From an uncultured Acidobacteriaceae bacterium (GTDB taxonomy: Bacteria; Acidobacteriota; Terriglobia; Terriglobales; Acidobacteriaceae): a stretch of DNA of 64,000 nt. A program made the position numbers and the translations under genes. Location: NCBI GenBank assembly GCA_963758255.1, contig CAVWUX010000010.1:19797-83796 (forward strand), read 5' to 3'. The notes under the pieces were generated by a model. It saw only the letters and a list, made by a program, of their open reading frames with translations. It did not search any database and was not told where the DNA came from. Positions 10,662-43,578 of the stretch are shown here, one piece after another (the stretch's first letter is position 1; each line of letters starts with the position of its first letter).

Positions 10662-11483
10662 GTGACGCTAATTGCCCGGCACCCGCATCTAAGTAACGTG
10701 AGCGATCCCAATCCAGTAGTGTCTCCGGCTGTGGAATCCAGCGCACCCGCCCGCCAACCGGCCGAGAGAAAGCTGTTGTCGGCGCGCCTGGCGCGTTCCC
10801 TCCTGCTCTCGGAGCAGACCAAGCACCTCGAGTTCGCGGTCGAAGGAGTGGATGAGTTCAACTTCACCCCCGGCCAGTTTGTTTCGATCCAGCAGCCGAA
10901 GCCTGACGGCAAGACCCACACCCGGGCGTACTCTCTCGCCTCGACCCCTCGTCACGGGGCGCAATTCGACCTGTGCCTGAATCGCGTGGAGCAGGGGTTC
11001 CTGTCGAACTGGCTGTGCGATCTGGAAGAGGGCGCAACCGTCCAGTTCCACGGGCCCCACGGGATGTTCACGCTCCGTGAACCCCGTCACAATGCCGTGT
11101 TCATCGCCACCGGCACGGGGATCGCGCCGTTTCGGGGCATCGTGCATTGGCTCTTTGAGCAACCCGACCGCCATCACGGGCACGAATATTGGCTGGTCTA
11201 CGGAACCCGCTACCAAGACGGTCTCTACTACGCCGACGAGTTTCGCGCTATCGAGCAGGCGCATCCTAACTTCCACTACCTACCGACCCTGAGCCGAGGC
11301 GATGGCGAATGGCAGGGGCTGCGCGGATACGTTCAGGACCACGTGCGCGAGATCGTGGCCGGCCGCACTGACCTGCGGGCCTACATCTGCGGGTTGCACC
11401 AGATGGTGGACGCCAATCGCAAGCTGCTCAAAGAAGAGCTGGGCTGGGACCGCAAGCAGATCGTCTTCGAGCGGTATGACTGA
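10662..11483 (+). CDS. FAD/NAD(P)-binding oxidoreductase, ferredoxin-NADP reductase-like
   Basis: RxYS FAD motif (RAYSLAS) and GTGIAPF NAD(P) motif. Exact start uncertain. Confidence 0.75.
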   Translation: MTLIARHPHLSNVSDPNPVVSPAVESSAPARQPAERKLLSARLARSLLLSEQTKHLEFAVEGVDEFNFTPGQFVSIQQPKPDGKTHTRAYSLASTPRHGAQFDLCLNRVEQGFLSNWLCDLEEGATVQFHGPHGMFTLREPRHNAVFIATGTGIAPFRGIVHWLFEQPDRHHGHEYWLVYGTRYQDGLYYADEFRAIEQAHPNFHYLPTLSRGDGEWQGLRGYVQDHVREIVAGRTDLRAYICGLHQMVDANRKLLKEELGWDRKQIVFERYD

Positions 11484-11560
11484 TCCCGCAGCTAGCTGAG
11501 TTACCCTGGGGTGCTCCTCTCCGGAAGCAGAACCGAACTGCGGCTTTTTGGACACACGGT

Positions 11561-11596
11561 GTGGCAAATCTGCGAATTTGCCACATCTTTCTTTTT
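11561..11596 (+). terminator. Hairpin GTGGCAAAT-N6-ATTTGCCAC followed by a T-rich tract
   Basis: Perfect 9-bp inverted repeat (11561-11584), then ATCTTTCTTTTT, 78 nt after the preceding stop codon. The stem is AT-rich, so it could also be a protein-binding palindrome. Confidence 0.4.
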
Positions 11597-12177
11597 CACG
11601 TGATGTTTAGAATCAGTGGTTTAGCCGGAAATTGTTCGCAAGTGATTGATAAATATGTAGGTTATACGTATCCATTTCCTGGGCGTGGGAGTTAGGTGGC
11701 ACGATGTTCGTCTTTCGTTCGCCTATTGGTCAGGGGGGTGGGGAGAGCGGTGTCCGGGTCCACTGCCCCAGTGACGGATCGCTCTGCACACTTTTTCATG
11801 TCCGATGAGGGGTTGCGCGGGTTTGCAAAGATCAAGCAGGGTCCGCGGCCTGGGCGCGGAGCGGGCAAGGCGCACCAATCCCTTGCTTCACGATTCACTT
11901 TCTACACTGCAGTAAACCGAGCGCGAAAGGACGTGGGACACATGACGGTGTGATAAGGCATGGCTGATGAAAATGCGGCAACTGCGGATCATAGGAAACG
12001 CCGGAGCCGAGTGGGCACGGAAACAGTCTGGTTCTCAATTGCCGAAGGCAATTGTGGGCCACCAGCGAGTGGCTCGCGATACGGAAAGAATCCGTCGCGG
12101 GCTGCGGCGTCGCGATGCCGGCTGTCACTCGACGGGGCCACCTTGCGGCTATACCAGTGTTTTGTGAAAATTTCCAC

Positions 12178-12205
12178 TTGACTTGAATCGAAACGGTACT
12201 AGTCT
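12178..12205 (+). promoter_or_regulatory. Sigma70-like promoter candidate TTGACT-N16-TAGTCT
   Basis: TTGACT at 12178-12183 and TAGTCT at 12200-12205. Immediately preceded by the near-palindrome GTGAAAATTTCCAC (12164-12177). About 300 nt upstream of the Crp-like gene. Confidence 0.3.
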
Positions 12206-12503
12206 GTCAGCAGTACCTGGGACTTCGGTGCGCCCTTCGTCCAGTGCCGGCAGGCTCTTCGGCGCCGCACTCGGCCTTCTTGATTGGTTCCTTGCTTTGG
12301 CCACGATGTATACGATCGTCGGGAACGGCCGATTTGCCGAGAATCAGCTTCTTCCCGTCCGCGCTGAGTAAATCTTTGGCGATATGTGTGGCCTAGCGCG
12401 TGTGGGCGAGCGCCAGGGAACTCCATTCATTCCCCGCCCGTCGAATGTGTCACCCGACCATATTCCTTGGCAAACGAAAACGGTTTCGTGACAGAGTCGG
12501 AAT

Positions 12504-13334
12504 TTGAGCACAAGGAATCGCGTCCTTCCGGATAGTTGTGGCACTCGCAACCATGGGAAGCCATTGAAGTACGAACCTATACAACTTTCCGATGCGGCTC
12601 GGAATCATCTCTTGTGCGCGCTATCGCTTGCCGAACTGGGGCGTCTACTGCCGCATTTTCAGCGTGTGACATGTTCCCTCGGCCAGATCGTTTACGAACC
12701 GGGCGAGCGCATCGAGTATTGTTACTTTCCAACCGACTGCGTCGTGTCGCTGGTGTACACCATGCGAGATGGCACGACTGCGGAAATGGGCCTGGTGGGA
12801 AATGAAGGTGTCCTCGGTGTCGCGCTATTTCTAGGAGGCGAATCTACCTGCAGCCGGGCTCTGGTACCGATCGCCGGGGAAGCACTCCAGTTGCCGGCCA
12901 AGCTGTTGCAGGAAGAGTTCGCGCGCGGCGGGCCGCTGCAGCGCTTGCTACTGCGCTACACACTAACGCTCATCACCCAGATTTCTCAAACCGCCGTCTG
13001 TAACCGCTTGCATTCCGTGGAGCAGCGGCTCTGCCGTTGGCTGCTCCTGTGCCATGACCGGAAGAATCGTACGGAATTACCCATGACCCAGGAACTCATT
13101 GCCAACATGCTCGGGGGACGTCGCGAGAGCGTAACCGTAGCCGCCGGACATCTGCAGGACGCCGGGCTGATTCATTACTGCCGCGGTCATATCACGATAC
13201 TGGATCGGGTTGGCCTCGAGGCGGCCGCCTGTGAATGCTATTGCGCCGTGGAAAATGAAGCCGACCGTCTGATCGGCAGGAAGCGGAAACCCGAATCTAG
13301 CAACCCCGAGGCAGCTTTTGAAGTAGCCGGCTAA
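12504..13334 (+). CDS. Crp/Fnr-family transcriptional regulator
   Basis: Cyclic-nucleotide-binding-like beta-roll region (YEPGERIEYCYFPTDCVVSL..GNEGVLG). C-terminal HTH (TQELIANMLGGRRESVTVAAGHLQDAGLI). Confidence 0.85.
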   Translation: MSTRNRVLPDSCGTRNHGKPLKYEPIQLSDAARNHLLCALSLAELGRLLPHFQRVTCSLGQIVYEPGERIEYCYFPTDCVVSLVYTMRDGTTAEMGLVGNEGVLGVALFLGGESTCSRALVPIAGEALQLPAKLLQEEFARGGPLQRLLLRYTLTLITQISQTAVCNRLHSVEQRLCRWLLLCHDRKNRTELPMTQELIANMLGGRRESVTVAAGHLQDAGLIHYCRGHITILDRVGLEAAACECYCAVENEADRLIGRKRKPESSNPEAAFEVAG

Positions 13335-13695
13335 CAAAGAAACGTAGCTGATCAAAATTGTCAGGCCGCGTCAGGTAGACGTTGCTCCCGACTGCCACCT
13401 CCGAACCCTCATCGAGACTGGCCACGCTGAAGATGACAACCGGAACATCTTCGCCCAGTCCAGCGCGTTCGCGGATTCGCCTTGCGATTGCAACCGTAAG
13501 AAGAGGATTCAGTCCCAGACTGAAGAGAATCAGATCAGGACTCTGGAGACCGGCCTTCAAGACCGCTTCTTCCTCATCTCTGGCCGTACTTACCCGGTAG
13601 CCACTGGATGTGAGTAGTCGCTCTACGCCATGGCGGGTCTCTTCCACATCCTCAACCACCAGGATGACCGAGCGGCACTCTTGATTGGATGTCAC
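13297..13695 (-). CDS. Stand-alone receiver-like protein lacking the phospho-acceptor Asp (pseudo-receiver)
   Basis: REC fold motifs (ILVVEDVEE, VPVVIFSV), but the beta3 position reads PDLILFSLGL (Asp replaced by Ser) and the conserved Lys is replaced (YLTRP). The 3' end overlaps the Crp-like gene by 38 nt, convergently. Confidence 0.75.
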   Translation of the reverse strand: MTSNQECRSVILVVEDVEETRHGVERLLTSSGYRVSTARDEEEAVLKAGLQSPDLILFSLGLNPLLTVAIARRIRERAGLGEDVPVVIFSVASLDEGSEVAVGSNVYLTRPDNFDQLRFFVSRLLQKLPRGC

Positions 13696-13972
13696 GGTTT
13701 GAGCTATGAGCGAACATCACTTTTCTACCAGAGTCATTCTTGGCCGTCTGTGCGCTGAACTACAAAGCTTCTGTCCCGAAGTGCACGGGTGTTGAAGCTA
13801 CGAACGAGCAGGCGAGATGTGACAATTTCTTGCGCTATGTGCGCTACCGCACCGACGCCCGTCCGCGTTTGCCCTCATGCTGCTTTCGAACAACGCGCCG
13901 CGACTCGACTCGCTCGCGAGTGAATCCAACGCTTGCGGCCCAGTTGCCAGGCATTAAGTTCGGAGGGATGTT

Positions 13973-16297
13973 ATGAGTGATGTGATCTCGTATGAAGACG
14001 CAGTCAGCCGGTTAGCCTCGCAGTCCGGTGCGGTTGGGCAACTCGCCCAGGACGCTGGCGCATTCGCGGCGGCTGTCGCTGCCTTTGAGGCAAGAGATGC
14101 AGACGCTTATCGCTGGGTGCTGGATCGGGTCGAGATGCTCCCCTATTGCGAATTGATCTGTGAGTGGGTGCGCGTCAAATTGGGGGTCTTGCGCTGCTAC
14201 GAGTTGTGTGGCGTGCCGCAGGAAAAGGTGCCAATTCCCGATCTGCAGCAGTTCGCCGCTGCGGTGGTACAACTCGCGTCAAATGAAAAACTGCTGCGCC
14301 AGGTTGTGGATGCGGTGGCCTGCGGTAATGGAGACGAATACCGAGCTGCCATCGCCGAACTCAAGCTCACTGAGTTCTGTTATCTGCTGTGTCATTGGGT
14401 CTACTTGATCATCTACCGCCGGGTTTGTGAGGTTATCTGCTCGCCTGAACGCATCCGCCTTGAAGATGCGGTGAGCGAGGTACAGGCCGCCAGCAAGGTC
14501 GTCGCCAGCCTGTTGGCCAATGAGAAAGCCATTGCCGTCATCGGCAAGGCCGCAATCAACCTCGACTGCCTGGTCATACGGTCCCAGATTGATGAGATCG
14601 GTTTTCGGCCATTCTGCGAGATCATCTGCTGGCTGATTTGTACTTGGCGGTGTGCGTGGGTCTGCCGGGAACTGTGCCTGATTCGCCCGCCGATTCTCAC
14701 CGGGGTCGATGCGATTGAGGAAGCGCGGACCTTCGCGTTGGCAACCCGGCAGTTCGCAGGCAAGCCTCGCGGGCTGACGGACTTGGTGACCGCGGTTGCG
14801 AGTCGGGACGCACAAGCTTACAGCGCGATCATTGACCGCTGGGGTCTCGGCCCGTACTGCTGGCAGGTGTGCGGGTGGATCTGCTGGGCCATCTGCCGCG
14901 AGTTCTGCATCTGCATTTGTCCGCCGCCGGTGCGTCGCCCATGGTTTGTCACCGTAGGCAATTTCGACATCTACACGCAGATTGATCCCGGCACGGGACG
15001 AACCAACACGAGTCTTGCACCCACCATCAACATGCCCTGGGGCGGCGGACCTAACTTCGCCTTCTTCAACGAGTTGAAGCTAGGCGGCTTCTGTCCCGCC
15101 GACTCGCCGACGTCACCGGGCATGCCGATGCGTTATCGCTTCCTCTACGCGAAGGACAAGACCACATTGTCCGGTGCAATAACGGCTGCCCAGGGTTCGA
15201 TCGATGTAACCAGTGCGGGCGCACCGGCTCCGCCCTTCAATATTTCGGTCTGCGTAGACGGACAAAGCGGCGAGACGATGACTGTGACCGGCGTTTCAGG
15301 TACCCACTGGACCGTCACACGCGGTCAGGATGGCACGACGGCGGCCGCCGCTGCCGCGGGAGCCGAGGTGTGGATTGACCCGAAGCCGATCACCGGTCCC
15401 CTCGTCGGCTCTGAGCTCCTGGTCGGGCAACGATTCATCTCCTGGCCGCAGAACACTGCCGGCGTCGCTGGGCCCGGGTTCGATCCGAACACGTTCGAAC
15501 CAATCTATGTAGGTTACGGTACCGACCCACTTCCACCAGCGCTGGGAACGACGTACTATAGCCCGAAACACTACATCAGCCCAGATATCACCACCGGCTG
15601 GATTGAAGTCGACCCAAACAGTCTCGCTGGAGCCTTCTTTGACCTACTTAACTTCGATTCGGCACAGGTCGTGGCCGGCGGCTGCCCGCCACTTCCCAAC
15701 CCCGATCCCCACCCATGCTTGAATGACATGCACTCGCCAGGTGGCGCGCCGGCTGGCAGTGCCGTGACAGGCGCCGGCCAAGGAGCCGGCACGGACTTGG
15801 CGATTATTTTCCAAGCCACTCGCGTCGGCGTTAGCTCTATCGATTACTCCAATTCCCTCTGCAAGATCCACATCAACAACTGGGTTGAGGTGAACAACCT
15901 GTGGATACAGGAATTCAATGGCCCAAGCACATGCTGTACGCCGATTGACACAACCCTCAGCGTGCAATTCACCGTGGACCACGAAGAGATGGACGCGGGT
16001 GGGTGGACCCTGGAAATCCTAAGTTGCAGCGGGTCCGCGCCGGGCGTCATTACACCGACGGCTTCCAGCCTCGGCCCGCCCCCGGTCACTGTGTCTTCTC
16101 GCGGCGGTTGGGGAACTATCGTTGAGAACACGACCGGCTGGACCAACTGCTCCTATCAGGTGTGGCTCATAACCAGACCCGGGCTCACAACTGGCCTGCA
16201 CGATCGGCATGAGGAAGATAATCTTTTGACCTTCTGTATCTGTGGACACGGAGGCCTTACGGCGCCGGCCGCCGCGGTACAGGCAAAGAAGCGCTAA
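13973..16297 (+). CDS. Cysteine-ladder repeat protein, 774 aa, no recognised family
   Basis: Long uninterrupted ORF with a GGAGGG SD 6 nt upstream. Contains four ~80-aa repeats ending in Cx3C-periodic helices. The C-terminal 450 aa are Gly/Pro/Thr-rich. No signal peptide. Confidence 0.85.
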   Translation: MSDVISYEDAVSRLASQSGAVGQLAQDAGAFAAAVAAFEARDADAYRWVLDRVEMLPYCELICEWVRVKLGVLRCYELCGVPQEKVPIPDLQQFAAAVVQLASNEKLLRQVVDAVACGNGDEYRAAIAELKLTEFCYLLCHWVYLIIYRRVCEVICSPERIRLEDAVSEVQAASKVVASLLANEKAIAVIGKAAINLDCLVIRSQIDEIGFRPFCEIICWLICTWRCAWVCRELCLIRPPILTGVDAIEEARTFALATRQFAGKPRGLTDLVTAVASRDAQAYSAIIDRWGLGPYCWQVCGWICWAICREFCICICPPPVRRPWFVTVGNFDIYTQIDPGTGRTNTSLAPTINMPWGGGPNFAFFNELKLGGFCPADSPTSPGMPMRYRFLYAKDKTTLSGAITAAQGSIDVTSAGAPAPPFNISVCVDGQSGETMTVTGVSGTHWTVTRGQDGTTAAAAAAGAEVWIDPKPITGPLVGSELLVGQRFISWPQNTAGVAGPGFDPNTFEPIYVGYGTDPLPPALGTTYYSPKHYISPDITTGWIEVDPNSLAGAFFDLLNFDSAQVVAGGCPPLPNPDPHPCLNDMHSPGGAPAGSAVTGAGQGAGTDLAIIFQATRVGVSSIDYSNSLCKIHINNWVEVNNLWIQEFNGPSTCCTPIDTTLSVQFTVDHEEMDAGGWTLEILSCSGSAPGVITPTASSLGPPPVTVSSRGGWGTIVENTTGWTNCSYQVWLITRPGLTTGLHDRHEEDNLLTFCICGHGGLTAPAAAVQAKKR

Positions 16298-16701
16298 TGT
16301 GGAGGTTCGTTCTGGCCGTTCTCGCAACCTGGCGGGTGACACACCTGCTGGCGAGCGAGGACGGCCCGGCCGACATCATCGTTCGATTTCGTGCGTTGTT
16401 GGGCCGGAGCATCATCGGCAAGCTGATGGACTGCTTCAATTGTCTCAGCCTGTGGGTCGCAGCTCTGGCGGCTCTTTACGTTTCGCGAAAGCCTCTGGAG
16501 TGGTTATTCTGCTGGCTGGCGCTGTCCGGTGGCGCCTGCCTGCTCGAACGCTTGGGGCAGGAGCCGGTCGTGATTCAACCCATGTCGCAGCCGGCAGAGG
16601 GAGATAACAGCGATGTGTTGCGGTCAGAATCGCACGGCAATGCGGAACATTCTGGCGCAGGGGACCACACGGAGCATTCCACAATACAGCTCCGGCTATA
16701 G
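16297..16701 (+). CDS. DUF1360-like small membrane protein
   Basis: TAATG stop/start overlap with the upstream gene. Has WRVTHLLxxEDGP and CFNCLSLWVA motifs plus hydrophobic segments, as I recall for DUF1360. Confidence 0.6.
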   Translation: MWRFVLAVLATWRVTHLLASEDGPADIIVRFRALLGRSIIGKLMDCFNCLSLWVAALAALYVSRKPLEWLFCWLALSGGACLLERLGQEPVVIQPMSQPAEGDNSDVLRSESHGNAEHSGAGDHTEHSTIQLRL

Positions 16702-16990
16702 CCAGGCCCAAGCCGTTCGAACCCGGCCTTCGACGCCTCCAGCAACGCAGACAGCTTCACCACACCCGGTCGCCATCCCGCAGGGTCAAGGTGTCCGACT
16801 TCAGGCCACGACGCCGGTCTCAGCACTGCAATCTGCCATGAGTTTGCGCTATCTGGAGAAGTCGCCCATCCGAGTGCGCGGACTTGCAACCGGCATCCTC
16901 TACGAGTTTTCGGGCGCCGCCCCTATTCAGCAAGTGGACACCAGAGACGCCCCGCCACTGTTGAACACACGATTCTTCCGTCGCGCATAA
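16613..16990 (+). CDS. Small hypothetical protein starting MCCGQNR
   Basis: 125-aa ORF with a GGAGA SD 8 nt upstream. It starts 89 nt inside the preceding ORF in another frame. Pro/Thr/Gln-rich middle, ordered-looking C-terminus (IRVRGLATGILYEFSGAAPIQQVDTRDAPPLL). Confidence 0.5.
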   Translation: MCCGQNRTAMRNILAQGTTRSIPQYSSGYSQAQAVRTRPSTPPATQTASPHPVAIPQGQGVRLQATTPVSALQSAMSLRYLEKSPIRVRGLATGILYEFSGAAPIQQVDTRDAPPLLNTRFFRRA

Positions 16991-17536
16991 GGGTGCAAGA
17001 CGGATTCGCCCGATAAAGCAAATCGAATTGGCGGAACTCAGCGCTCTCGTTGCAAGCTCCAAGGCGAAGACTCCAAGGTCCTCGGCCGGTGGCCCAGCCC
17101 GCGCGGGTCAAGCAGAATCTTAACGTGGGTGGCCCATTCCGGCTTCCATTGCCGGGGTGGGTGCTTTGATTTTCGCTGACAAATGGCCACTCGCTACTGA
17201 CCAAAGGCACGGTTCATCCGTCACACTCAACCGTGATGAACTCGCTTGGTGCTTCCCGCCCCATGCGCATACACTACCAGCGGCAGGATGAGGGAGAGCT
17301 GTCGTCCCCGAAGATGGCAGCCGGACACTACCCGAGTCCCCAGTAGGTGCCTCGACCTGTGATGGGTCACGTTCGTCCTCGATGTCTCGCCCATCTGCCC
17401 GCCCACGCTCTCGCCCCGTCCGAAGTAATCCTACTTAACTCCTTTGTTAACAAGACTTTGAATATAACTCACGTGTTTGCAGGAACTTACAGCCGATCGT
17501 GCTGCAAACCCTTTGTTTTCAAGAACAGGGGTAGGG

Positions 17537-17561
17537 GGGAGGGGTACCCAAAACCCCTCCC
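17537..17561 (-). terminator. GC-rich hairpin downstream of the rpfF-like gene
   Basis: GGGAGGGGT-N7-ACCCCTCCC, a 9-bp perfect stem, 40 nt after the stop codon. No clear U-tract. Confidence 0.35.
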
Positions 17562-17600
17562 GCTCCAGAACGGGAAATGCCGTCCAAAATCGAAGCTGAC

Positions 17601-18521
17601 TCACACCTCCGGCGCGACCGGCGCAGCGGATGCGGTTCCGCTGAATCGCCGGGATTGCGCTCGAACAACTCGCTCAATCGTCCGAATTCCCTGTTCACCC
17701 AAGGCCATTGCTGAGTCGACCCATTCGGTCGTGATGTCCTGCAGTTCTAAGATGGGCACACTCTCATAGCGCTGATAGACGCGGTTCACCGCCTGGTGGG
17801 CCAAGGGGGCACGGCGGCGGTCCTGCACCAGCCTGTGGGCCGCTGCGAGACCCTCACCGCGGGGCACGAGCATATCGACAATGCCAAGCTGGTATAGCTC
17901 CTCAGCCTTGTAGCGCTGCCCATTCAGAACCATGCGCTGGGCGCGCATCGCCGAGGTGCGGCGACGCAAGAACGAAAAGGCGCCCATGCCGGGGAAAAGG
18001 CCGAACAGCACTTCGGGGAAGCCCATCTGCACGCCCTCCTCGGCGATGAATGTATTGCATGCCAGGGCCACCTCCAGTCCGCCGCCCAGGGCGTCACCTT
18101 GCACCACCGCGATGGTATGCACTGATCCCGCCGCGATGTCCTGAAGCGCTGCGACCACCTCAACACAGAGCAAGGCGTATCGCAGCAGCGTTTCGCGATC
18201 ACGGCGGCGGATGCAGCGCGCAAACAGCTCCAGATCGCCGCCGAGGTTGAATACCGGCGCATCGCTGGCGATGACCAGGTGGGTGAGCGGCATCACTACG
18301 TTCTCGCGTTGAGCCAGCGTCTGCGTCCGAACAAGCTGCTGCTGCAACGCTTTTGCATCCTCAAGAATGGGCCAGGAACAACAAGGACGCGATTGATCGA
18401 TGGCGTGCATAAACGCCCAATAGATGTTGCTTTCCGTGTCGTGTTGGGTGCGCATGTGGCGGTCAACACAAGAGGGTGGAAGGGGTGTCAGAGTGCTTTG
18501 AAGTCGAGTGGCGGCATTCAT
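17601..18521 (-). CDS. rpfF: Crotonase-superfamily DSF-synthase-like protein (RpfF/DfsA type)
   Basis: Matches recalled RpfF/Bcam0581 signatures: YWAFMH..SRPCC, SDAPVFNLGGDLELF, QGDALGGGLE, GFPEVLFGLFPGMGAFSFL, WVDSAMALGEQGIRTIERVVRAQSRR. Start uncertain (ATG 18521 with GAAAGG upstream, or 18551). The ORF-track start 18671 looks too long. Confidence 0.75.
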   Translation of the reverse strand: MNAATRLQSTLTPLPPSCVDRHMRTQHDTESNIYWAFMHAIDQSRPCCSWPILEDAKALQQQLVRTQTLAQRENVVMPLTHLVIASDAPVFNLGGDLELFARCIRRRDRETLLRYALLCVEVVAALQDIAAGSVHTIAVVQGDALGGGLEVALACNTFIAEEGVQMGFPEVLFGLFPGMGAFSFLRRRTSAMRAQRMVLNGQRYKAEELYQLGIVDMLVPRGEGLAAAHRLVQDRRRAPLAHQAVNRVYQRYESVPILELQDITTEWVDSAMALGEQGIRTIERVVRAQSRRFSGTASAAPVAPEV

Positions 18522-18934: not shown

Positions 18935-20503
18935 TCACTGCAGCGCGCTGGTCAGAAAGCCTCCAACCTCCTGCTTCAGCCGACCGAGAGCGTCGCTCTT
19001 GATGTACATCATGTGTCCGGCGTCGTAATAGCCGAGGGTGATCTTGGCGTGCTGCTGGGCGTTGAGGTTCATGTGGCTGAGCGTGTACTGGGTCGCGAAG
19101 TAGGGCGTTGCCAGGTCGTAGTAGCCGGAAGCCACGAACAGCTTCATGTAGGGATTCTTCACGAAGGCCAGCCGCAGCGCCTCGCTGGTATCGGGGAATC
19201 CTTCTCCGGCCGAGCCCCAATCCCAGTCGGTAACGCCTCCGCCGAGCACGTAATACTCAAGATCGGTTTTGTAACCCAGATCGCTGCGCACGTAGTTGTT
19301 GAAGGTTGCGGTAAACGGCGGACGTATCACCGACATGGAAGGGTCGTAATACATGCCCTCACCGCGCACGCGTGAGAGGTCGTCGCCGGTGAAGCGGCTA
19401 TCGAGACGGCCCACCATCAGCCGCTGATTGCGCAACAGCTCGCGGCAAAAAACACCCTGCGTCAGGCGCATATCGTTCTCGTCCACGACGCTGCGATCGA
19501 TTCCGGTGAATCGTGCTACCTGGTCGACCAGGGTCTGGCGCTCGGTTGGCGTCAGGTTGTCGCCCTTCCCCAAGGCGCTGGCATAGGGCCCGGCGGCAAA
19601 CTGCTGGGCGTCACTCAGGACGCTGGCCAGGTCGCGCTGCTGCAAATCCGGCGGCAGCTTCTTGTGGTACCACGCCGTCGATGTATAACTCGGCAGGTAG
19701 AGGATGTACGGCAGATCGTTGCCGCGGGTGAATTCCAGGGTCTGGAAGTTCAGCACCGAGGAAACCAGCACGACGCCACTGAGGGCGATGCCGCGGTCAA
19801 CCAGGTAGCCGCTGAGTCCGGCGGCGCGGGTGGTGCCGTAGCTCTCTCCGACCAGAAACAGCGGGGAAGTCCAGCGCTGGTAGCGGCTGAGGTACAACCT
19901 GATGAAATCGGCAACCGACGAAATGTCGCCTTTCACGCTGAAGAACTTCTTGGCGAGCTCCTTCTTGGTGGCCCGGCTGTAGCCGGTTCCTACCGGGTCG
20001 ATGAACACGAGGTCGGTCTGGTCGAGCCAAGTGTCTTCGTTGTCTATCAGCTCGAAGGGAGGTTGAGGCATGCCGCCGTCGGGCAGCATTTTCACACGGC
20101 GCGGACCGATGGCGCCCAGATGCAGCCAGAGGGATGCCGATCCCGGGCCGCCGTTAAAGGAAAACATCAGCGGCCGCTTTGCGGGGGCGTTGTCGAGGGT
20201 GTAGGCGACAAAGAAAATGTTGGCTTCAACCTCGGTTCCCTCTTCGTTGCGGATCGGCATGTAGCCGGCGGTCGCGGTGTAGTGCAGCGCGCGTCCACCA
20301 ACCGTGATCTGGTGGTGGGTGACAATCGGCGGCTCTTCCTTGGGGGCTGCGGGCTTCTCCGCATCGCCGGGAAGCTTGCCGGACTTCTCGGTGGTTTTGT
20401 CGGCGGGCTTGGCGGATTCGGCGGCGTCCTTCTGCTGTGCGGTAAGGCAGGGGGCAAAGAAAAGCAGCGTTAGACAAATAGCAGCGGCACGAACATGGCG
20501 CAT
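18935..20503 (-). CDS. Secreted S10-family serine carboxypeptidase
   Basis: Signal peptide (AAICLTLLFFAPCLTAQ), FNGGPGSAS motif and GESYG catalytic-Ser motif. Confidence 0.85.
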   Translation of the reverse strand: MRHVRAAAICLTLLFFAPCLTAQQKDAAESAKPADKTTEKSGKLPGDAEKPAAPKEEPPIVTHHQITVGGRALHYTATAGYMPIRNEEGTEVEANIFFVAYTLDNAPAKRPLMFSFNGGPGSASLWLHLGAIGPRRVKMLPDGGMPQPPFELIDNEDTWLDQTDLVFIDPVGTGYSRATKKELAKKFFSVKGDISSVADFIRLYLSRYQRWTSPLFLVGESYGTTRAAGLSGYLVDRGIALSGVVLVSSVLNFQTLEFTRGNDLPYILYLPSYTSTAWYHKKLPPDLQQRDLASVLSDAQQFAAGPYASALGKGDNLTPTERQTLVDQVARFTGIDRSVVDENDMRLTQGVFCRELLRNQRLMVGRLDSRFTGDDLSRVRGEGMYYDPSMSVIRPPFTATFNNYVRSDLGYKTDLEYYVLGGGVTDWDWGSAGEGFPDTSEALRLAFVKNPYMKLFVASGYYDLATPYFATQYTLSHMNLNAQQHAKITLGYYDAGHMMYIKSDALGRLKQEVGGFLTSALQ

Positions 20504-43491: not shown

Positions 43492-43578
43492 GCCGAAGTG
43501 GCGGAATTGGCAGACGCGCATGGTTCAGGTCCATGTACCCGCAAGGGTGTGGGGGTTCGAGTCCCTTCTTCGGCACCA
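43492..43578 (+). tRNA. tRNA-Leu (anticodon CAG)
   Basis: 87-nt cloverleaf. Acceptor GCCGAAG/CTTCGGC. Anticodon stem CATGG/CCATG with loop TTCAGGT. Long variable arm. T-arm GGGGG-TTCGAGT-CCCTT. Encoded CCA. Confidence 0.9.

Follow-up and report, generated by a model that had tools for sequence, protein, structure and literature searches.

The DNA considered here is a 64,000-nucleotide stretch (the window) from an uncultured Acidobacteriaceae bacterium, corresponding to positions 19,797 to 83,796 of contig CAVWUX010000010.1 (assembly GCA_963758255.1). Between positions 13973 and 16990 it carries three co-directional genes, here named A, B and C, which the initial annotation had described from the letters alone as a tightly coupled, uncharacterized three-gene system. 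Our analysis supports this overall reading, and the close packing of the three open reading frames (ORFs), including the TAATG junction and the 89-nt overlap, is confirmed. With no characterized match for A, B or C, the trio looks like a new thiol-based system, and our tentative preference, offered as a possibility, is for a self-contained thiol module, with A oxidized or otherwise handled by B and C.

13962..13967, plus strand: GGAGGG, Shine-Dalgarno sequence of A
13973..16297, plus strand: gene A, 774 aa
16297..16701, plus strand: gene B, 134 aa
16600..16604, plus strand: GGAGA, Shine-Dalgarno sequence of C, inside B
16613..16990, plus strand: gene C, 125 aa, N-terminus MCCGQNR
17132..17172, plus strand: terminator-like hairpin from a sequence scan, 12-bp stem followed by a T-run

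The ATG start of A was assigned from the ORF and a check of the sequence. In TAATG, the final base of the TAA stop of A doubles as the first base of the ATG of B, and C is read in the +1 frame from within B. Both Shine-Dalgarno sequences proposed earlier are present, GGAGGG 5 nt 5' of the ATG of A and GGAGA 8 nt 5' of the start of C, and the GGAG of the former is kept in the alignment of upstream regions. Judged by these junctions and by the comparisons below, A, B and C are one conserved, translationally coupled operon, of which the hairpin is the probable end. A simple scan revealed no sigma-70-like promoter, and Rfam gave no match on 11400-17700 at E≤1.

Conservation of the operon and searches for relatives

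Homologues of A numbered 313 in a word-indexed search, all of them labelled hypothetical and none with a Pfam domain, and a profile search against 1.84 billion cluster representatives returned 160 (50%-identity clusters) at E≤1e-30. With one genome scanned for each species, 57 loci were located, all of them in metagenome-assembled genomes (MAGs) of soil or peat origin. The carriers are mostly Acidobacteriota (Bryobacterales, Terriglobia, Acidobacteriaceae, Solibacter), and a minority are labelled Alpha- or Gammaproteobacteria, Chloroflexota or Phycisphaerales. On the evidence of these sequences the A family extends beyond Acidobacteriota bins, and bin labels need caution, since several of the other labels belong to sequences that share 67-75% identity with those of Bryobacterales. 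Such is the case of loci L009 and L011, where the A homologues are 67-75% identical to the Bryobacterales-type protein of the window in bins labelled Gammaproteobacteria and Vitreoscilla, a similarity that indicates mis-binning, mislabelling or recent transfer.

In every informative locus, that is, in every locus with enough DNA downstream of A, B lies directly 3' of A, the A/B junction being usually between -22 and +1 nt, and an ORF starting MCCG[QSN]KR overlaps the 3' end of B. The order of the trio is therefore the same in all informative loci from the 57 species-level genomes, and the use of two C homologues as starting points led to the same arrangement (Crp, receiver-like gene, A, [B], C), the flanking genes otherwise differing between loci. 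The 189 homologues of C, about 125 aa in length, together with the syntenic ORF and its invariant MCCG start, identify the 125-aa frame predicted earlier as a real, conserved gene and not a spurious one. Two copies of the set formed by a Crp-like gene, a receiver-like gene, A, B and C were found in one MAG, MFD04428.bin.2.85 (L020 and L029), and in L029 the frame of A is interrupted after 386 aa, by either a frameshift error or pseudogene formation. In L001, and only there, a Tc-toxin-like protein of ~2600 aa that combines the domains SpvB and TcdB_toxin_mid is encoded directly 3' of the operon (11319-18304).

The libraries searched were Pfam 2025, NCBIfam 2026, PHROGs, PADLOC and PDB to 2026. 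Protein A had no match in Pfam, NCBIfam or PADLOC, and its match in PHROGs was confined to an insert domain described below; B and C matched none of the PADLOC defence-system models. Sequence and profile searches of A against PDB gave chance-level results only (e.g. PsaE over the insert domain), the full AlphaFold2 (AF2) model had no Foldseek match in PDB at E≤1e-3, and in BFVD only the ~80-residue insert was matched cleanly. The earlier remark that A could not be assigned to a characterized function is thus in line with these searches, none of which gave a characterized family for the whole of A. When the 61 members of the A family were scanned against Pfam, the only match was a weak one to CATASP (8 of 61, best E 0.009); it could not be localized in ten members, literature on the name proved irrelevant, and it was dropped. 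From these comparisons the module seems to lie outside the known kinds of system, and we infer its function from sequence and models.

Modules and cysteine pairing of protein A

The AF2 model of A (mean predicted local distance difference test score, pLDDT, of 84; 61-sequence alignment) is all-helical over residues 7-315 and beta-rich over residues 324-756. The following elements can be distinguished:

13985..14932, plus strand: N-domain, four repeats of ~78 aa (aa 5-82, 86-160, 161-240, 243-320)
14138..14209, plus strand: Cys helix of repeat 1 (aa 56-79; C59, C63, C75, C79)
14369..14440, plus strand: Cys helix of repeat 2 (aa 133-156; C136, C140, C152, C156)
14606..14677, plus strand: Cys helix of repeat 3 (aa 212-235; six Cys spaced i,i+4)
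14849..14920, plus strand: Cys helix of repeat 4 (aa 293-316; seven Cys, including C314, which covaries with C199)
14939..16294, plus strand: beta-rich C-module (aa 323-774), with invariant D669-H670-E671 and C654-C655
15116..15370, plus strand: optional inserted domain (aa 382-466), like the N-terminal domain of phage tail-fiber proteins

The four repeats proposed for the N-terminal 320 aa were recovered with hhalign as mutually related units (probability 97-99%, E 1e-10 to 1e-18, repeat sub-alignments), each consisting of three short helices and one long helix with Cys at every fourth residue. The closest couples are repeat 2 with repeat 4 and repeat 1 with repeat 3, which suggests that a two-repeat unit was duplicated. 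The protein has 34 cysteines, 23 of them within residues 1-322, and the pairs pointed out earlier in the C-terminal part are present in STCCTP (C654, C655) and FCICGH (C755, C757). Also in agreement with the initial annotation, A has no signal peptide: its N-terminus is devoid of basic or hydrophobic signal-like stretches, there is no in-frame start further upstream, and homologues align from residue 1.

Sequence comparison identifies the two halves of A as separable modules. The Cys-ladder domain is also joined to unrelated Cys-rich beta C-termini (P0288, P0305, P0346), and in P0300, P0324 and P0349 an unrelated beta-sandwich takes the N-terminal place before the C-module. A signal peptide is absent from all six relatives. 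Neither B nor C lies beside domain-swapped relatives in the three informative loci, one with the Cys ladder and a different C-terminus (L066) and two with the beta N-terminus and the same C-module (L065, L068); L067 and L069 were too short.

The insert at residues 382-466 matches phrog_38058 (E 3.3e-10) and gave ~80-residue Foldseek matches in BFVD with a root-mean-square deviation of 1.4-2.9 Å. It is missing from the ~670-aa forms of A and located near the C-terminus in others. The long series of weak matches to A, which includes giant proteins with up to 31 copies, is due to this domain. In gene A of L005, L007, L015, L016, L022, L036, L038 and L056 the tail-fiber-like domain, of ~75 aa, proves mobile, being placed after residue ~395, moved close to the C-terminus, or absent. 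The likeness to tail-fiber N-terminal domains, by profile and by fold, could be taken to mean that the locus is a prophage or tailocin remnant and A a tail-fiber-type protein. We consider this highly improbable, given that the match is limited to an optional domain that many members lack or carry elsewhere, that A outside this domain has no relative in phages, that tblastn of A gave no match among 50,697 phage records and 72,556 plasmids and a scan of viral contigs was equally empty, and that the loci offer no phage or tailocin gene context, with no phage genes recurring in the flanks.

The central result concerns the cysteines of A, whose presence or absence was scored for covariation (phi) across ~150 homologues. 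Two pairs reached a phi of 1.00, namely 199-314 (133 sequences with both Cys, 23 with neither, 0 mixed) and 71-144 (101 with both, 52 with neither, 0 mixed), followed by 654-685 (0.95), 67-148 (0.94), 485-591 (0.94), 227-304 (0.86), 367-480 (0.84), 571-585 (0.73) and 427-630 (0.64); pairs 485-591 and 367-480 were each gained within a sub-lineage. In addition, Cys 75 and Cys 140 were lost jointly in P0055 and P0059. The positions in 67-148, 71-144 and 75-140 all sum to 215, which places the Cys helices of repeats 1 and 2 antiparallel and in register, and by position the ladder is completed by the invariant cysteines as 59-156, 63-152 and 79-136. For repeats 3 and 4 a single pair, 227-304, covaries between the two Cys helices. 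An antiparallel register with a sum of 531, from 215-316 through 235-296, is the likely one there, since it sets all six cysteines opposite each other, whereas a parallel register would leave two unpaired.

Protein A therefore appears, from its sequence family, to contain two pairs of helices, each joined by as many as six i,i+4 rungs (up to twelve Cys pairs). The commonest state in the family is five rungs between repeats 1 and 2 and six between repeats 3 and 4, and the copy in the window has four (with G71/Y144 and R67/Y148 in place of Cys) and six, respectively. The ladder cysteines are invariant in the 61 aligned A sequences, from bins of several phyla. Where rungs have been lost, the replacements combine a small and a bulky residue (G with Y; S, T or G with R, Y, H or W), which suggests side-chain contact. 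The "cysteine ladder" of the initial annotation is amended to a zipper, in which antiparallel helices from neighboring repeats are joined pair by pair.

Of 127 full-length members, 85 have an even total of cysteines (p 1.7e-4). The count is usually odd in the N-domain and in the C-module when each is taken separately, pointing to one inter-domain pair, probably involving C117, for which C374 and C757 are candidate partners; 655-726 is a further predicted pair. The gain and loss of cysteines in pairs, including new pairs in the beta module, along with this parity bias, is the signature of structural disulfides, and we infer that the covarying pairs are such disulfides and that mature A is oxidized and very stable.

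Paired cysteines on helices can also be envisaged as metal ligands, and the main rival to our preferred reading, although not very probable, is that A is a cytosolic, Csp3-like metal store or buffer whose rungs hold two-coordinate Cu(I), or Zn(II) across two rungs, with the CxxC of B serving for hand-off at the membrane and the Cys-Cys head of C as a metallochaperone. Csp3 has 18-19 helix-borne cysteines that bind Cu(I), with eight Cu(I) sites formed by single-helix CXXXC motifs and the rest by cysteines of adjacent helices, and cytosolic Csp forms, like A, have no signal peptide (PMC5171941). As in Csp1 and Csp3, the cysteines of the A ladder are numerous and all borne as repeated CXXXC on predicted helices (56-79, 133-156, 212-235 and 293-315, with a spacing of 4). 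Reduced twin-CX3C motifs bind Zn 1:1 (PMC3759932), the ladder of repeats 1 and 2 in the window consists of exactly two blocks of two adjacent rungs, and both CxxC and a CC at the N-terminus typically serve as metal ligands.

Several points count against this reading. A is unrelated to any Pfam family, and hence to Csp, with no match in Pfam or NCBIfam, none in Pfam among its 61 members, no sequence or profile match in PDB, and no Csp structure among the 50 Foldseek PDB matches listed for A. It is a 774-aa protein that combines a large beta module with four-helix repeats, in each of which only one helix is a Cys helix. Csp proteins have four helices lining a common core, while in A each cysteine has one partner on an antiparallel helix, and this strict 1:1 covariation between two helices argues against a Csp-type four-helix core, although it is compatible with metal binding. 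Gain and loss of single rungs, with five as the commonest state, fits poorly with Cys4 sites, and pairs also come and go within the beta module (367-480, 485-591, 654-685, 427-630), a part in which serial metal sites are unlikely. Finally, the operon context lacks metal-homeostasis genes: neither Cu/Zn homeostasis genes nor metal-sensing regulators recur nearby, the adjacent regulator being Crp-like.

Parallels to a disulfide zipper exist in the twin-CX3C small Tims, helix-loop-helix proteins with C1-C4 and C2-C3 disulfides (PMC3759932), and in the plant alpha-hairpinins (CX3C-Xn-CX3C, and a 6C form), with two and three rungs (PMC11591084). Both share with A the antiparallel helices, the i,i+4 cysteines and the outer-outer and inner-inner pairing in the same register; juxtaposed CX3C motifs on antiparallel helices were found in repeats 1 and 2 (sum 215), this orientation being presumed for repeats 3 and 4. 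However, those proteins have 2-3 rungs in a hairpin of <100 aa and reside in oxidizing compartments, compared with up to six rungs, twice, in A. Their short helix-loop-helix also contrasts with the paired helices of A, which lie ~57 residues apart in adjacent repeats with three other helices between them, and A is bacterial, signal-less and not homologous to either group (no Pfam match).

Proteins B and C and the regulatory neighborhood

The predicted DUF1360-like membrane protein of ~134 aa passed the Pfam threshold for DUF1360 (PF07098) with 27.3 bits (cutoff 21; E 3.7e-6), residues 36-84 matching positions 49-99 of the 102-position model. Thus, B shares with DUF1360 the profile match and a CxxC-x-S-x-W motif, and differs in that only the C-terminal half of the model is covered; B homologues at other loci show weak or faint PF07098 marks. 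The 56-locus alignment shows invariant W12, H16, E21-D22-G23-P24, R32, G41, D45-C46-F47-x-C49, S51 and W53, with an unconserved tail.

16429..16443, plus strand: DCFxC motif of B (D45-C46-F47-x-C49), invariant in the alignment
16613..16627, plus strand: MCCGQ start of C, invariant in the alignment
16835..16987, plus strand: small beta domain of C (aa 75-125, AF2 pLDDT 93-95)

B has three hydrophobic segments, with a mean Kyte-Doolittle value of 1.4-1.7 across 56 homologues. The mean number of K and R residues is 3.4 in loop 1, 1.2 in loop 2 and 6.9 in the tail, from which B is probably N-out/C-in, with the CxxC, at the start of the second hydrophobic segment, at the cytoplasmic face. The literature searched contained only two incidental mentions of DUF1360 and nothing functional, and the fixed partnership of B with A and an overlapping MCCG gene is undescribed there for this family. 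The Bacillus subtilis protein YjcA may be a DUF1360 member, and is not used as evidence.

The size of B, its three hydrophobic segments, its probable topology and its charged, hydrophilic tail are also compatible with a holin, although these features are generic and no holin family was matched in Pfam or PHROGs. The operon might in that case be a release cassette, with A a signal-less surface-binding or toxic protein that becomes oxidized spontaneously once outside, B a holin-like protein that lets it out and C a release or anchoring factor. This would explain disulfides without a Sec signal and would fit the tail-fiber-like domain and beta modules of A, which are typical of extracellular binders, as well as the weak match of B to phrog_781 (E 0.003) and the occurrence of DUF1360 in mycobacteriophages. 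We regard it as unlikely: unlike in holin-endolysin systems, no muralytic partner gene (endolysin or peptidoglycan hydrolase) is found in the operon or recurrently beside it, the family is absent from the phage genomes, plasmids and viral contigs searched, and C has neither signal peptide nor lipobox. Moreover, the invariant CxxC of B and MCCG of C would be left unexplained, and the 50-80% identity of B across phyla and the conservation of A over its full length are unlike toxin/immunity pairs.

In C, the invariant parts are M1-C2-C3-G4-Q5 and the C-terminal domain, only MCCG[QSN]KR being universal. They are separated by a P/Q/S/T-rich linker, with residues 9-65 disordered by AF2 (pLDDT below 50). 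Most loci encode the long form with the C-terminal domain, and about a dozen a short one of 65-85 aa that consists of the head and a disordered tail. Foldseek found no PDB neighbor for the beta domain and no redox fold, and the family has no match in Pfam, nor C in NCBIfam. The MCCG codons share nucleotides with those for ...DVLR in B. The possibility that C is a frame artefact of B was rejected, since B is variable or absent after DVLR while C keeps its ORF, start and Shine-Dalgarno sequence. The C frame also retains a foldable domain at most loci, so that, by sequence conservation, C is the constrained reading of the B/C overlap.

Gene callers usually keep one of the two overlapping frames: C is uncalled in the window record, L001, L003 and L006, and B in L070 and L071. 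The absence of the window's C from the protein collection means that it was not called in the source record, and one-of-pair calling implies that the MCCG family is under-annotated publicly. Tandem C-like ORFs occur 3' of B in the Acidobacteriaceae MAG locus L053 (8746-9096 and 9126-9434), where the second matches just residues 14-124 of C and may be without the MCCG head.

As to the surroundings, the initial annotation had placed the cluster among signaling genes. This stands in one sub-clade for the Crp-like gene and the pseudo-receiver, to which a palindrome can be added; the other member, an enoyl-CoA hydratase family gene in the window, proposed earlier to be RpfF-like, is not conserved beside the operon.

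12504..13334, plus strand: Crp/FNR-family regulator (Pfam HTH_Crp_2 and cNMP_binding)
13297..13695, minus strand: single-domain receiver-like protein (pseudo-receiver; Response_reg E 2.9e-10)
13836..13856, plus strand: operator-like motif TATGTGCGCTACCGCACCGAC, inverted repeat GTGCG-N4-CGCAC, 117 nt upstream of A

The Crp-like protein matches HTH_Crp_2 with 66 bits (cutoff 27; E 2.9e-18) and cNMP_binding with 26 bits, slightly under the cutoff of 27.5 (E 9e-6). Its gene also precedes A in L020, L024, L029, L037, L056, L060, L070 and L071, which gives nine loci, window included, in one sub-clade. The pseudo-receiver reads LILFS at the acceptor-Asp position in a manual alignment made by eye, and its gene is convergent with the Crp-like gene and divergent from A. 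A receiver-like homologue occupies the same place in L020, L024 and L029 (tblastn) and in L071 (Response_reg), and L070 has an uncharacterized 120-aa gene there. At most of the nine loci the convergent receiver-like gene runs into the 3' end of the Crp-like one. An overlap of exactly 38 nt between the 3' ends of the Crp-like (+) and receiver-like (-) genes is conserved in the window (13297-13334) and in two distant loci, L070 (2367-2404) and L071 (2375-2412).

Alignment of the nine upstream regions revealed an invariant block, TATGTG.G....CGCACCGAC, that contains GTGCG-N4-CGCAC and lies 110-300 nt upstream of A, in the window within the divergent stretch separating A from the receiver-like gene. 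The block is confined to loci with the Crp-like gene, plus L044 (minus strand), and TATGTGCGCTACCGCACCGAC occurs once in the window against 0.02 expected. Based on these patterns, the Crp-like protein is probably a clade-specific accessory that regulates the operon, and the palindrome is probably its operator.

The FNR-like 5-N4-5 palindrome and the Crp/FNR-family regulator beside the operon at these nine loci, together with the many conserved Cys pairs of a protein without signal peptide, could also be accommodated if A were a cytoplasmic redox sensor or oxidant sink with ~16 reversibly oxidized dithiol pairs under Crp/FNR-type control. We find this quite unlikely, since the regulator is confined to a sub-clade, the sporadic gain and loss of beta-module pairs resembles fold stabilization and not a tuned switch, and the large, binding-type C-module and the membrane partner would go unexplained.

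Upstream of the Crp-like gene, a region of ~1 kb (11484-12503) contains no ORF >85 aa and no tRNA, and has a lower GC content (0.54 at 11500-11999). A tRNA-Leu(CAG) at 43492-43578 (+) is the sole RNA gene detected across the 64-kb window.

A possible thiol module

In the reading that we tentatively favor, in which B and C would oxidize or handle A, the large protein probably works outside the cytoplasm, which is reducing in bacteria, either in the envelope or after release, with its beta module and tail-fiber-like domain binding a surface or polymer. The Sec/DsbA route would be closed to A, so that the operon would supply its own thiol chemistry: B may pass oxidizing equivalents at the membrane, and the Cys-Cys head of C may shuttle them to A, or tether A to B. 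In the sub-clade described above, the adjacent Crp/FNR-type regulator would switch the operon via GTGCG-N4-CGCAC. A further proposal, more doubtful than this one, is that DUF1360 proteins are new minimal membrane thiol enzymes acting at the cytoplasmic face, and that B, together with C, either builds the disulfides of its client inside the cell or S-acylates MCCGxKR. The MCCGxKR head resembles eukaryotic dual-palmitoylation motifs, such as that of the GAP-43 N-terminus.

Several points weigh against the thiol module. No signal peptide or export route can be identified for A, Dsb or thioredoxin-type genes do not recur in the neighborhoods, B is unlike known oxidoreductases and DUF1360 has no assigned function, and C shows no redox fold by AF2 and Foldseek against PDB. 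The pairing in A is deduced from covariation; two-coordinate metal sites would also give pairwise covariation, and some pairs, such as 71-144, may trace back to just one or two events in evolution. A run of six i,i+4 rungs would require distortion of the helices, and we know of no solved precedent beyond three. The evidence consists of sequences and models, and every carrier is an uncultured MAG.

An analogy for such a module is the Mia40/Erv1 relay of mitochondria, which oxidizes twin-CX3C helical hairpins (PMC3759932, PMC11452306). There, as would be the case here, a helical CX3C client is oxidized independently of DsbA, by small proteins whose cysteines lie close together. The two are not homologous, B and C lack flavin adenine dinucleotide (FAD), thioredoxin or CHCH features, and a relay is in the present case a proposal. 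The cytoplasmic pathway of poxviruses is another dedicated disulfide relay.

If the pairing in A corresponds to disulfides, no longer cysteine zipper between helices would be known than these two sets of up to six rungs, and the operon could represent either an undescribed route of protein oxidation or export or an undescribed metal-thiolate architecture. With this operon, DUF1360 for the first time has constant partners with which it can be tested, and a small-protein family is defined by its invariant Met-Cys-Cys-Gly start. Were B a thiol enzyme or an acylase, it would belong to a bacterial pathway without described counterpart, and this would provide a first function for DUF1360 in Bacillus, actinomycetes and their phages. 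Being compact, at about 3 kb, the module lends itself to heterologous testing, and it is found widely among uncultured bacteria of soil and peat, chiefly Acidobacteriota, a group whose functions are still poorly known.

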